Of a stretch of DNA of 64,000 nt, positions 40,067-42,419 are shown in pieces. The stretch is from NCBI RefSeq assembly GCF_036507355.1, contig NZ_AP027877.1. One strand, 5' to 3'. How positions within the stretch are numbered: the stretch's first letter is position 1; each line of letters begins with the position of its first letter. The notes beneath the pieces were generated by a model. The model was not told the DNA's origin and did no database searches. It saw only the letters and a list, made by a program, of their open reading frames with translations. Both the position numbers and the translations under genes were made by a program. This DNA is from Escherichia coli (lineage in GTDB: Bacteria > Pseudomonadota > Gammaproteobacteria > Enterobacterales > Enterobacteriaceae).

Positions 40067-41119
40067 ATGGGGATCATCGTACGAATTCTTAAAGCTAACC
40101 ATGGCGATTGCATTTTGGTGAGCCATGAAAGCGGTTCAGGCACTCTCAACTTGCTCATTGATGGGGGACCTGCGACGACATTCAGGTATGGCATTAGGCA
40201 GCGCTATTCTGGAGCATTGAGTAACGCTCTCGATGATCTGAAAGGAAAGGGGCAAAACATTGATCTGGCTATCCTGACCCACATTGATGATGATCACATA
40301 AATGGTTTTATCAAGGCATTCGAAAGTCCAAACTATCTGCGTCAGCTGGTTAAATCGATCTGGTTCAATTCTTCGAGGTTAATCACACATCATTTTAATG
40401 TGCCTGAAATTTGTGAAAATAATATTTTCTTGCAGGAAGTTTCCCCTGAAACTAGCGTTAAACAGGGGCAAGAACTTGAGGCATTACTTGATGAAATCGG
40501 ATGTGTGCGAGCACCGCTCATTATGGCAGGGCAAATCTACAAAGTAGGCCCGATTACTTTAACAGCACTTTCACCTGAACGAAGACAACTCGAACAGCTT
40601 TTGCATAAGTGGCCAACGGAAGTAAGTTCAGCTGACACTTCTTCATATGAGAATGATTATCACCGTTCATTGGACGAAATTTGGGCAGATGATAGATTTG
40701 AATCTGACTCATCTATTTATAATGGAAGCTCAATTGCATTTTTACTGGAAACAGATGACAAAAAAATGCTTTTTTTAGGAGACGCCAATGACCAAGTTGT
40801 TACAAAAAATTTAAGAGCATTGGGCTATAGCGAAACAAACAAGTTGAAGCTGGATCTGGTTAAAGTTTCGCATCATGGTAGTCAATACAACACAAGCAAC
40901 GAATTTCTTTCAATACTAGATTCTCCATGCTTTGTTATTTCAACCAATGGTTCGAAGCATGGTCTTCCTAATAAAAGGACTATTGCAAGGATCTTAAAGG
41001 AAACAGATGGTGATATTTATTTTAATTACAGCAATGTAATTACTCCGCTGCTTTTAGCGCATGAAGCTGAGAGCTATTCTTCTCGTCTAAAAGTGCTAGG
41101 TGATGAGATTAAATTCTAA
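40067..41119 (+). CDS. Metallo-beta-lactamase-fold hydrolase (candidate nuclease/effector); gene 1 of the candidate defence operon
   Basis: MBL motifs HGDC, THIDDDH, SHHGS; 350 aa; AT-rich. Confidence 0.7.
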   Translation: MGIIVRILKANHGDCILVSHESGSGTLNLLIDGGPATTFRYGIRQRYSGALSNALDDLKGKGQNIDLAILTHIDDDHINGFIKAFESPNYLRQLVKSIWFNSSRLITHHFNVPEICENNIFLQEVSPETSVKQGQELEALLDEIGCVRAPLIMAGQIYKVGPITLTALSPERRQLEQLLHKWPTEVSSADTSSYENDYHRSLDEIWADDRFESDSSIYNGSSIAFLLETDDKKMLFLGDANDQVVTKNLRALGYSETNKLKLDLVKVSHHGSQYNTSNEFLSILDSPCFVISTNGSKHGLPNKRTIARILKETDGDIYFNYSNVITPLLLAHEAESYSSRLKVLGDEIKF

Positions 41120-42419
41120 CATGACAGTTTACGAAATAATGCAGTCCCACTGCGTCATGGTTAATGGTGGCAGTGGTGTGCTAGTTAATGCAATGACACT
41201 GGATTACACATATGTACTGACTGCATACCATGTTATTCGTGACACTCTCGATAATATCGAAGTTACCGATCACAGTGGCAATAAACTTACAGTATTAGCT
41301 GTGCTCCTATATCCAGATATTAAATATTTGAACGAATCCCATAATGATTTCGCAATTTTAAAAATTGAATATCAACCAGAAGTTGCACAAAGTTGTTTTA
41401 CTGCTTCGACGTTGCCTCCTCGTGCTGAGCTTACATTAGTAGGATTTCCAAACACTGAAAGAAGGAGTTCGGATCCTATAAAATATTATGATGGACATAT
41501 GACTAGCGTGGTCGATGAGCTTGTCATTTTCACTGTTGATGGTGTACCAGGCTTAGCCACGATAAAGGGGATGTCAGGTGGAGGTGTATATCACATAGTT
41601 GGTAGAAATACATTTCTTGTTGGTGTTGAGTTTAGGATGGATGGCACTGAAGAGGAACAACAGTTTGGCCGAGTGCAATGCCATAGCTTAGCAAAGTTTG
41701 ATGAAATAATAAGAGCATACGATAGCGCACCGATGATTCCTGCCCATTTGGAATGCTTTTCTCGAATACAAGACAAAATATTTAAATTTAATGTTATTGA
41801 TCAAAACAATGTTCGTAATCTTAAAGATGCGTTAGAAGCCCTTTCCAGATCACTTATAGCTAGTGGGATGTCTCCGCCTTACAAAATCATGGGGCAATAT
41901 GGATTACAGCTTTTGATGGATCCCAAAACTCCTAATGAGCTCAGTAATAAAGAGTTATGGATTTCTTATTTTGAATTTTTAGTTATTTGCTCTGTGATAG
42001 ATAATGTTGGAATTGTGGATGATGCATATATAAAAAGCTTGGAGCGAAAGCGGCGGCTATTATATACCAGTAATGGTGCGAACTGGATTAGCCATTTGGA
42101 AGAACTACTCAAAACGGCACGAAAACTTTTAGATAAGGATGGCACTTTAATCGTTGCATCACCTGATGCTGCTGCAAGTGTCTTGCCTCCGAACTTTCGA
42201 CTTAAAAACGTAATAAGTAATATAGCGGTAGTGCCAAACCAGGGGCCGTTTGCTATCGATGAAGTTGAAAGTTCTATTTATACAAGCTTCAAATTAACTC
42301 ATCTGGAGGGACTCCGCAAAAGCTGCGTAATAGACCGTGAGGATGAATATCTAGTAGTTCCAGCAGGTGTACCACAATTGCAGTTATTTAAGGAGAAGCT
42401 TAATGAAATTATTAAGTAA
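41103..42419 (+). CDS. Trypsin-like (S1/chymotrypsin-fold) serine protease domain fused to a C-terminal helical domain of about 260 aa; start ambiguous (ATG at 41103 or 41121)
   Basis: Putative catalytic triad contexts LTAYHV (His), NDFAIL (Asp), GMSGGGVY (Ser); overlaps or abuts the upstream stop. Confidence 0.7.
   Translation: MRLNSNMTVYEIMQSHCVMVNGGSGVLVNAMTLDYTYVLTAYHVIRDTLDNIEVTDHSGNKLTVLAVLLYPDIKYLNESHNDFAILKIEYQPEVAQSCFTASTLPPRAELTLVGFPNTERRSSDPIKYYDGHMTSVVDELVIFTVDGVPGLATIKGMSGGGVYHIVGRNTFLVGVEFRMDGTEEEQQFGRVQCHSLAKFDEIIRAYDSAPMIPAHLECFSRIQDKIFKFNVIDQNNVRNLKDALEALSRSLIASGMSPPYKIMGQYGLQLLMDPKTPNELSNKELWISYFEFLVICSVIDNVGIVDDAYIKSLERKRRLLYTSNGANWISHLEELLKTARKLLDKDGTLIVASPDAAASVLPPNFRLKNVISNIAVVPNQGPFAIDEVESSIYTSFKLTHLEGLRKSCVIDREDEYLVVPAGVPQLQLFKEKLNEIIK

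Follow-up and report, generated by a model that had tools for sequence, protein, structure and literature searches.

The serine protease of a long Lamassu cassette predicted in Escherichia coli and its probable pro-nuclease substrate

A window of 64,000 nucleotides of Escherichia coli DNA (contig NZ_AP027877.1, RefSeq assembly GCF_036507355.1) was analyzed with emphasis on a serine protease gene, to which an earlier note on this DNA had drawn attention, and on the gene cassette that contains it. Four co-oriented genes on the + strand occupy positions 40067-46063, and each is a full-length match to a PADLOC model of the anti-phage system Lamassu. The first gene (40067-41119) encodes LmuA-H, a metallo-β-lactamase (MBL)-fold hydrolase of 350 aa (PADLOC LmuA model PDLC03854, 2e-128). 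The second encodes LmuA-P, in which an S1 (trypsin/HtrA-like) serine protease domain (41121-41669; triad H44, D83, S159) is followed by a C-terminal domain (41679-42419), and it covers positions 1-425 of the 425 positions of PADLOC LmuA model PDLC03855 (1.6e-142). The gene for LmuC (42403-42942, 179 aa; PADLOC LmuC, 3.5e-50, with the alignment beginning at residue 13 of the longer open reading frame) is small and sits between the LmuA and LmuB genes, as the Lamassu/ABC-three component (ABC-3C) organization requires; it contains the Pfam domain MComp1 (E 2.3e-8) of the ABC-3C middle component 1, and an AAGGAG ribosome-binding site lies 5' of its ATG at 42403. The fourth gene (42932-46063) encodes LmuB, a long ABC ATPase of 1043 aa that resembles structural maintenance of chromosomes (SMC) proteins and Rad50 and is the predicted DNA sensor (PADLOC LmuB model PDLC03865, E 0 across positions 1-1038). 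The ABC-ATPase operon described in the earlier note is thus present, and the ATPase and the small protein can be named as LmuB and LmuC. The genes are tightly packed: the MBL stop codon (41117-41119) and the protease ATG at 41121 are separated by a 1-nt gap, the protease and LmuC genes overlap by 17 nt, and the LmuC and LmuB genes overlap by 11 nt. Matching gene overlaps were found in a Vibrio locus (L002). Promoter and terminator scans performed no better than shuffled controls.

LmuB matched the Pfam families AAA_23 and SMC_N and, weakly, the Rad50 structure 3qf7. It has a Walker A motif (APNGFGKS) at residue 39, a signature-like SAAQ at 938, a Walker B motif (VVMIDD) at 967 and an H-loop (STH) at 1003. 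Only one CxxC hook (CPLC) is present, at residue 524 of 1043, and by amino acid composition the middle region of the protein is poor in proline and glycine (3.8% vs 8.2% in the end regions), in keeping with the long coiled coil that would carry the hook in this type of LmuB. The hallmarks of the long type of Lamassu are a Walker B of the form hhhhDD, exactly one CxxC hook, and greater length of LmuB, of LmuC and of the LmuA C-terminal domain; the LmuB of short Lamassu has ∼600 aa (Haudiquet et al., bioRxiv 10.1101/2025.04.02.646746). Of these features the window LmuB shows VVMIDD, a single CxxC and the great length.

The whole cassette recurs in other bacteria, with unrelated flanks. It is chromosomal in Pseudomonas, Vibrio and Acinetobacter and plasmid-borne in Enterobacter cloacae, Shewanella baltica, Enterococcus faecium, Bacillus sp. 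S3 and Clostridium butyricum. The arrangement of an MBL gene followed by a protease gene was held in 8 further loci. On the E. faecium plasmid (L011, 9962-13074) LmuB is annotated as two open reading frames of 758 and 229 aa, and this copy is probably disrupted or frameshifted. Because all four genes match PADLOC models over their full length, and because of the Pfam domains, the Walker B and CxxC hallmarks and the recurrence of the cassette, the gene at 41100-42419 almost certainly encodes the protease subunit (LmuA) of a long Lamassu (ABC-3C) system of the hydrolase-protease type, a type for which the name ABC-3C system with a trypsin effector is also in use. It belongs to a family that is already known: it is catalogued in PADLOC and Pfam and named by NCBI, and the mechanism of its effector module was published in 2025. 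In the E. coli annotation the four products appear in order as ComEC/Rec2 family competence protein, ABC-three component system protein, ABC-three component system middle component 1 and AAA family ATPase. The proteolytic arm of a defense system that had been proposed from this DNA corresponds to the protease of a predicted anti-phage system, one already catalogued as Lamassu.

The protease open reading frame has 439 codons (41100-42419) and opens with a GTG at 41100, from which all protease residue numbers are counted. The motifs TAYHV, NDFAIL and GMSGGGVY, to which the earlier note had assigned an ordered His-Asp-Ser arrangement, were all present as quoted, with H44 encoded at 41229-41231, D83 at 41346-41348 and S159 at 41574-41576. 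Pfam placed Trypsin_2 at residues 24-168 (E 1.7e-8), and the Trypsin family also matched (E 1.4e-6), well outside what chance would give. H44, D83 and S159 were invariant in 121 sequences (the query and 120 homologues with identities of 54-97%). When the protease domain alone was used in an exhaustive search, this extended to distant relatives, and 135 of 137 representatives with 23-60% identity kept all three residues, so that the conservation on which the earlier proposal depended was confirmed at both distances. Some of the triad-bearing relatives of the protease domain are fusions of 700-2200 aa. Fold searches with the predicted protease model returned the S1 fold, and the His, Asp and Ser residues follow each other in TAxH, DxAxL and GxSGG contexts. 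Judged from its sequence, the protein is a chymotrypsin-fold (S1) serine protease with an intact Ser-His-Asp triad. Six protease domains of the Thr-type and Ile-type (see below) were also aligned for differences in the S1 pocket, and these were too few sequences for any conclusion. The protease partner from Vibrio parahaemolyticus Hachiman aligned poorly with the other protease domains and showed no clear triad, for which its annotated start is a possible reason.

The start given in the earlier note (41103-42419) is the second codon of the open reading frame. Homologous proteins, like the PADLOC profile, start at residue 8 (MTVYEIMQ), and for this reason the true start of the protease is probably the ATG at 41121, one base past the MBL stop codon. 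In identical E. coli loci RefSeq/PGAP places the start at the GTG corresponding to window position 41178 (V27), which gives a protein of 413 aa (record L006, 13279-14520). A start at 41178 drops the invariant residues V19, V21, N22, G24, S25 and G26 and is, because of this loss, probably too late.

The C-terminal half of LmuA-P matched no catalytic family, as had been anticipated in the earlier note. Pfam assigned residues 194-411 (E 1.3e-59) to CTD4 ("C-terminal domain 4 of the ABC-three component systems", PF20280), and many residues of this region are invariant among the homologues. The CTD4 family is defined as the module found at the C terminus of ABC-3C effectors and has been proposed as a docking station (review PMC10586767). 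In cryo-electron microscopy structures of the short Lamassu of Vibrio cholerae, the C-terminal domain of resting LmuA is bound to LmuB2-LmuC, and after the sensing of DNA ends it forms the core of an LmuA tetramer (bioRxiv 10.1101/2025.04.02.646746). By analogy, CTD4 is predicted to be the docking and oligomerization domain of LmuA-P, which agrees with the earlier suggestion that this part of the protein couples the protease to the ATPase. No solved structure in the PDB matched CTD4 in a sequence profile search, and both fold searches with the whole protease model were filled by protease matches. Residues 358-386 were modeled as disordered (predicted local distance difference test, pLDDT, <50), yet this segment holds the invariant residues A359, I375, P379 and P383, and D387 follows just after it. 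This pattern is expected of a segment that becomes ordered only on partner binding, and the model thus suggests residues 358-386 as a candidate partner-binding peptide.

The MBL protein encoded directly upstream also matches the PADLOC RTasMBL and Avs1a models, and NCBIfam places it with Avs1a. Its metal-site residues H72, D74, D76, H77, H180, D239, H269 and H270 are invariant among the homologues. H270 aligns with H289 of PflHamM, the mutation of which abolished defense (Tuck et al., PMC12799240). The AlphaFold2 model of the protein had a pLDDT of 85 and came closest to the nuclease domain of ComEC (see below). Exactly two segments of the model fall below a pLDDT of 50, residues 120-130 and 183-193, which are the putative gating loops. 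Proteins with two such loops are known from related systems. Hachiman and AVAST make their nuclease as an inactive, "gated" proenzyme (Tuck et al., Science 2025, PMC12799240). The two gating insertion loops of these trypsin-MBL pro-nucleases are absent from ComEC-type nucleases. PflHamM is cut by its protease after Ile118 and Ile218; for EpiAvs1a a product consistent with cleavage beside Ile134 was seen during infection, and mutants of Ile134 and Ile234 lost defense (PMC12799240). Cutting of the gates unmasks a non-specific DNase, and forced dimerization of the protease is enough to trigger the nuclease (PMC12799240). A second group reached the same conclusion independently and counted >1500 trypsin-MBL pairs (Huang et al., bioRxiv 10.1101/2025.09.03.673762), a number at odds with the earlier view that protease-coupled defense is rare. 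The same authors cite earlier reports of the trypsin-MBL module in ABC-3C systems, and the model figure of Tuck et al. extends the mechanism to Lamassu (PMC12799240). By comparison with these systems, the window MBL protein is a probable gated pro-nuclease and the probable substrate of the adjacent protease. The earlier note had left the target as a host or effector protein of no named identity and had not linked the protease to the gene at 40067-41119; this upstream MBL pro-nuclease is the likely substrate.

The two disordered loops each contain a threonine that is invariant in 121 of 121 clade sequences, T129 in gating loop 1 and T191 in gating loop 2, although the loops are otherwise variable and the P2 position varies. 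The residue after T129 is Ser or Thr, and the residue after T191 is Ser, Ala or Thr. In the window the codons of T129-S130 lie at 40451-40456 and those of T191-S192 at 40637-40642, both on the + strand. The sequences of PflHamM, EpiAvs1a and a Bacillus LmuA-H were taken from the supplement of Tuck et al. and aligned with the window MBL. In this alignment T129 shares a column with the mapped P1 residues (those after which the chain is cut) I118 of PflHamM and I134 of EpiAvs1a, in the context x-[I/T]-[S/G]-x-x-[Q/E]-G. Both the T129 and the T191 column hold Thr in the window, in Enterobacter and Shewanella and in the chromosomal loci of Pseudomonas, Vibrio and Acinetobacter, and the Bacillus sp. 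S3 Lamassu has DT|S in both loops. The E. faecium Lamassu, PflHamM and EpiAvs1a have Ile at both gates, and an AVAST-like system of Runella has Val at gate 1 and Ile at gate 2. The P1 residues of the two gates thus co-vary across lineages (T/T, I/I, V/I). A short-loop Hachiman MBL is cut at S128|S129 and S191|S192, in loops 107-129 and 184-203 (bioRxiv 10.1101/2025.09.03.673762); the numbering of T129 and T191 coincides with these cuts, which is a match of numbers and not of an alignment. The isoleucines Ile115, Ile120 and Ile217 of the MBL were considered as cut sites by analogy with the "conserved isoleucine" and rejected, as the mapped Ile residues align with T129 instead; Ile217 moreover is a variable position (V, I, P, D) adjoining the YNGSS motif of the conserved core.

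Because the gate-1 column is shared with the mapped Ile residues and the T191 column co-varies with it, cleavage is predicted after T129 and T191 (T|S in each case), by a protease that would prefer β-branched P1 residues; we hold this prediction at close to even confidence. Two observations weigh against it, in that the P1 residue here is Thr, vs Ile or Ser at the mapped sites, and gate 2 of HamM and Avs1a is longer than that of the window MBL by ∼20 residues, which makes the alignment of the latter to the mapped I218 and I234 fail. If the prediction is right, the gammaproteobacterial long-Lamassu clade and, independently, the Bacillus sp. S3 Lamassu may have a third specificity, with Thr as P1 at both gates (x-T|S), a proposal that we make tentatively and at slightly less than even confidence. 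Swaps of MBL proteins between cleavage-motif groups break the published systems (bioRxiv 10.1101/2025.09.03.673762).

Taken with the published systems, the cassette would work as follows. At rest, the C-terminal domain would keep LmuA-P on the LmuB-LmuC complex with the protease inactive, and the MBL protein would be an inactive pro-nuclease whose two disordered loops lie over the active site. LmuB, as a Rad50/SMC-like ATPase with a zinc hook, would sense phage or plasmid DNA structures, upon which LmuA-P would be released and would oligomerize via its C-terminal domain. Both loops of the MBL protein would then be cut by the active protease, with Thr129 and Thr191 as the most likely P1 residues, and the unblocked nuclease would degrade DNA indiscriminately and so abort the infection. 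Abortive infection as a protection from phages or plasmids is established for other Lamassu systems, one of the hydrolase-protease type among them. We consider it likely that the job of LmuA-P is the activation of the upstream MBL pro-nuclease by cuts in its gating loops after release from LmuBC. The cleavage of the MBL protein, the trigger and the release are inferred from homologous systems, as is the DNase activity of the window MBL. Several points weigh against this assignment. With PflHamA the protease domain shares only ∼22% identity, and the structures of LmuA release and tetramerization come from short Lamassu, whose C-terminal domain is of a different family. The group that validated the AVAST, Hachiman and Ago versions of the module did not report the ABC-3C version (Huang et al., bioRxiv 10.1101/2025.09.03.673762), and in the literature searched we found no experiment on a Lamassu trypsin-MBL pair.

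The protease might instead be the terminal effector, which once freed from LmuBC would degrade host or phage proteins, with the MBL protein independent or accessory. Other Lamassu LmuA proteins do carry a toxic activity in the N-terminal domain itself (Cap4, Sir2, Mrr), and further substrates of LmuA-P are compatible with all data presented here. We nevertheless regard this reading as unlikely. The MBL gene lies directly upstream at every locus examined, and the disordered loops of the MBL protein hold invariant residues at the mapped cleavage column. In addition, the Hachiman protease cut no other proteins, and active-site mutants of its nuclease lost defense (PMC12799240); the protease and MBL trees co-evolve (PMC12799240; bioRxiv 10.1101/2025.09.03.673762). 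As a weaker possibility, the protease of Lamassu may cut additional proteins as well as the MBL protein.

It is less probable still that the MBL protein is not a DNase but another hydrolase, e.g., a phosphodiesterase acting on a nucleotide or cell-envelope substrate, while the protease acts on subunits of Lamassu itself. Many chemistries are known on the MBL fold, and the second-best fold match of the model was the pneumococcal phosphorylcholine esterase Pce. The best PDB match, on the other hand, was the β-lactamase-like nuclease domain of ComEC (9ic4), with a template modeling score of 0.55 normalized to the query and 0.71 normalized to the target, the query covering part of 9ic4. A profile search of the PDB returned no solved relative of the MBL protein. 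For the homologous proteins (HamM and MBL), the substrate is DNA and RNA is left intact (PMC12799240; bioRxiv 10.1101/2025.09.03.673762), and the grouping with Avs1a in PADLOC and NCBIfam likewise argues for the pro-nuclease that LmuA-P is proposed to activate.

The window cassette was compared with the characterized systems closest to it. According to Millman et al. (2022), in this case as cited by Haudiquet et al. (2025, bioRxiv 10.1101/2025.04.02.646746), the hydrolase-protease Lamassu of Bacillus cereus B4077 defends against phage. It has the same four components in the same order (MBL, trypsin-CTD LmuA, LmuC, long LmuB), but the window MBL is only 31% identical to a Bacillus LmuA-H, has short gating loops and has Thr instead of Ile in the P1 column. 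Unlike the Bacillus system, the window cassette belongs to a gammaproteobacterial clade and lies in a pheV island of E. coli. The Hachiman HamMAB systems of Pseudomonas fluorescens (Tuck et al.) and Klebsiella pneumoniae (Hachiman-MBL; Huang et al.) have two gating loops, as predicted for the window MBL, with a homologous gate-1 P1 column, but their sensor is the helicase HamB with an inactivated HamA, whereas the window has an SMC-like ATPase and LmuC; P1 is Ile or Ser in Hachiman and Thr in the window, and the protease domains are as divergent as noted above. AVAST type 1 (Avs1a, an MBL protein, and Avs1b, a protease-STAND fusion) has the same trypsin-MBL module, and the window MBL matches the Avs1a models. 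Its sensor, however, is a STAND NTPase that recognizes phage terminase, and its gating loops are long where those of the window are short. In DdmABC of V. cholerae (Lamassu Vc-Cap4) LmuA likewise consists of an effector domain and a C-terminal domain, but the effector domain is a Cap4 nuclease in its own right, the short LmuB lacks a zinc hook, there is no second effector gene, and the families of the C-terminal domain and of LmuC differ from those of the window. In the caspase-nuclease systems named Canu, the partner protease switches on a homologous MBL pro-nuclease that is likewise gated; this protease is a caspase with Gly as P1 and there is no SMC-like sensor, whereas the window has a trypsin-type protease, Thr and LmuB.

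Related MBL genes were seen in other protease contexts. The plasmid homologues include a caspase-MBL locus, and in Bosea (L016) a caspase-family gene lies on either side of the MBL gene, which is a canu-like arrangement. On a plasmid of Miltoncostaea oceani (L017, 4302-8440) a homologous MBL gene lies between genes for an S8 (subtilisin-family) peptidase and a DUF2235 protein, which may be another protease/pro-nuclease pairing with a different protease family.

In the window the cassette sits between a P4-type tyrosine integrase (38366-39553, - strand) and a tRNA-Phe gene (46900-46975, - strand), which is pheV and adjoins yqgA and speC. Its GC content is 37.5%, vs 49% for the window. The P4-type integrase was found in 133 E. 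coli genomes, while the cassette was found in 3 of 5426 complete E. coli genomes, in copies that are 99.8-100% identical. In E. coli SH19PTE6 the interval from integrase to tRNA (L008, 11968-14879) holds one small gene only, for a hypothetical protein of 195 aa, and of the spacer between LmuB and the tRNA only the 262 bp nearest the tRNA are widely shared. Because this interval is nearly empty in SH19PTE6 and only the 262-bp spacer is widely shared, the Lamassu cassette is exchangeable cargo of ∼6.8 kb in a variable slot (38366-46975) of a pheV island. A direct-repeat search for the attL and attR sites of the island gave short chance matches only. The rarity of the cassette, its foreign base composition and the insertion sequence (IS) fragments of the island would suit a silent or decaying passenger with no present function in this strain, but we consider this very improbable, as all four open reading frames are full length, every catalytic and ATPase motif is intact and the three E. 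coli copies are nearly identical.

Some further features of the island and of its relatives were recorded. In strain 23CRST042 a segment of a CbtA/CbeA toxin-antitoxin island lies beside the same integrase. In the window, a fragment of an IS3-family transposase (34469-35125, - strand) directly adjoins what is left of a second tyrosine integrase, namely its C-terminal part (35106-35636). Strain YZ22MPE54, whose locus is otherwise identical, has this integrase intact (1179 nt); an IS insertion apparently truncated it in the window's strain. Between the two integrases lies a gene for a 641-aa protein (35718-37643), annotated as DUF927 in matching E. coli records, and the Pseudomonas locus L001 likewise has a DUF927 gene (14792-17296) close to its Lamassu cassette. 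A second stretch of low GC content (40% vs ∼50% in its flanks) is located further inside the island, at 28001-30000. In the Vibrio locus (L002, 1-4422) the cassette adjoins genes for TniQ, Csy2, Csy3 and Csy4, the signature of a type I-F CRISPR-associated Tn7-like transposon, and may be cargo of that transposon.

As a discovery the locus carries little weight, since the family is catalogued and how the module works was already resolved in 2025. The corrected start of the protease would mend a probable misannotation in RefSeq, and the Thr-type cleavage motif that co-varies between the gates is a small new point. In the literature searched there was no biochemistry on a Lamassu protease/pro-nuclease cascade with an SMC sensor, and long Lamassu complexes are without a solved structure. 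The compact E. coli locus, with the precise predicted cuts T129|S130 and T191|S192, would be a convenient model in its native host. If the series of P1 residues holds true, these systems would provide a natural series for the co-evolution of a protease with two cut sites and a source of orthogonal protease/pro-nuclease pairs.

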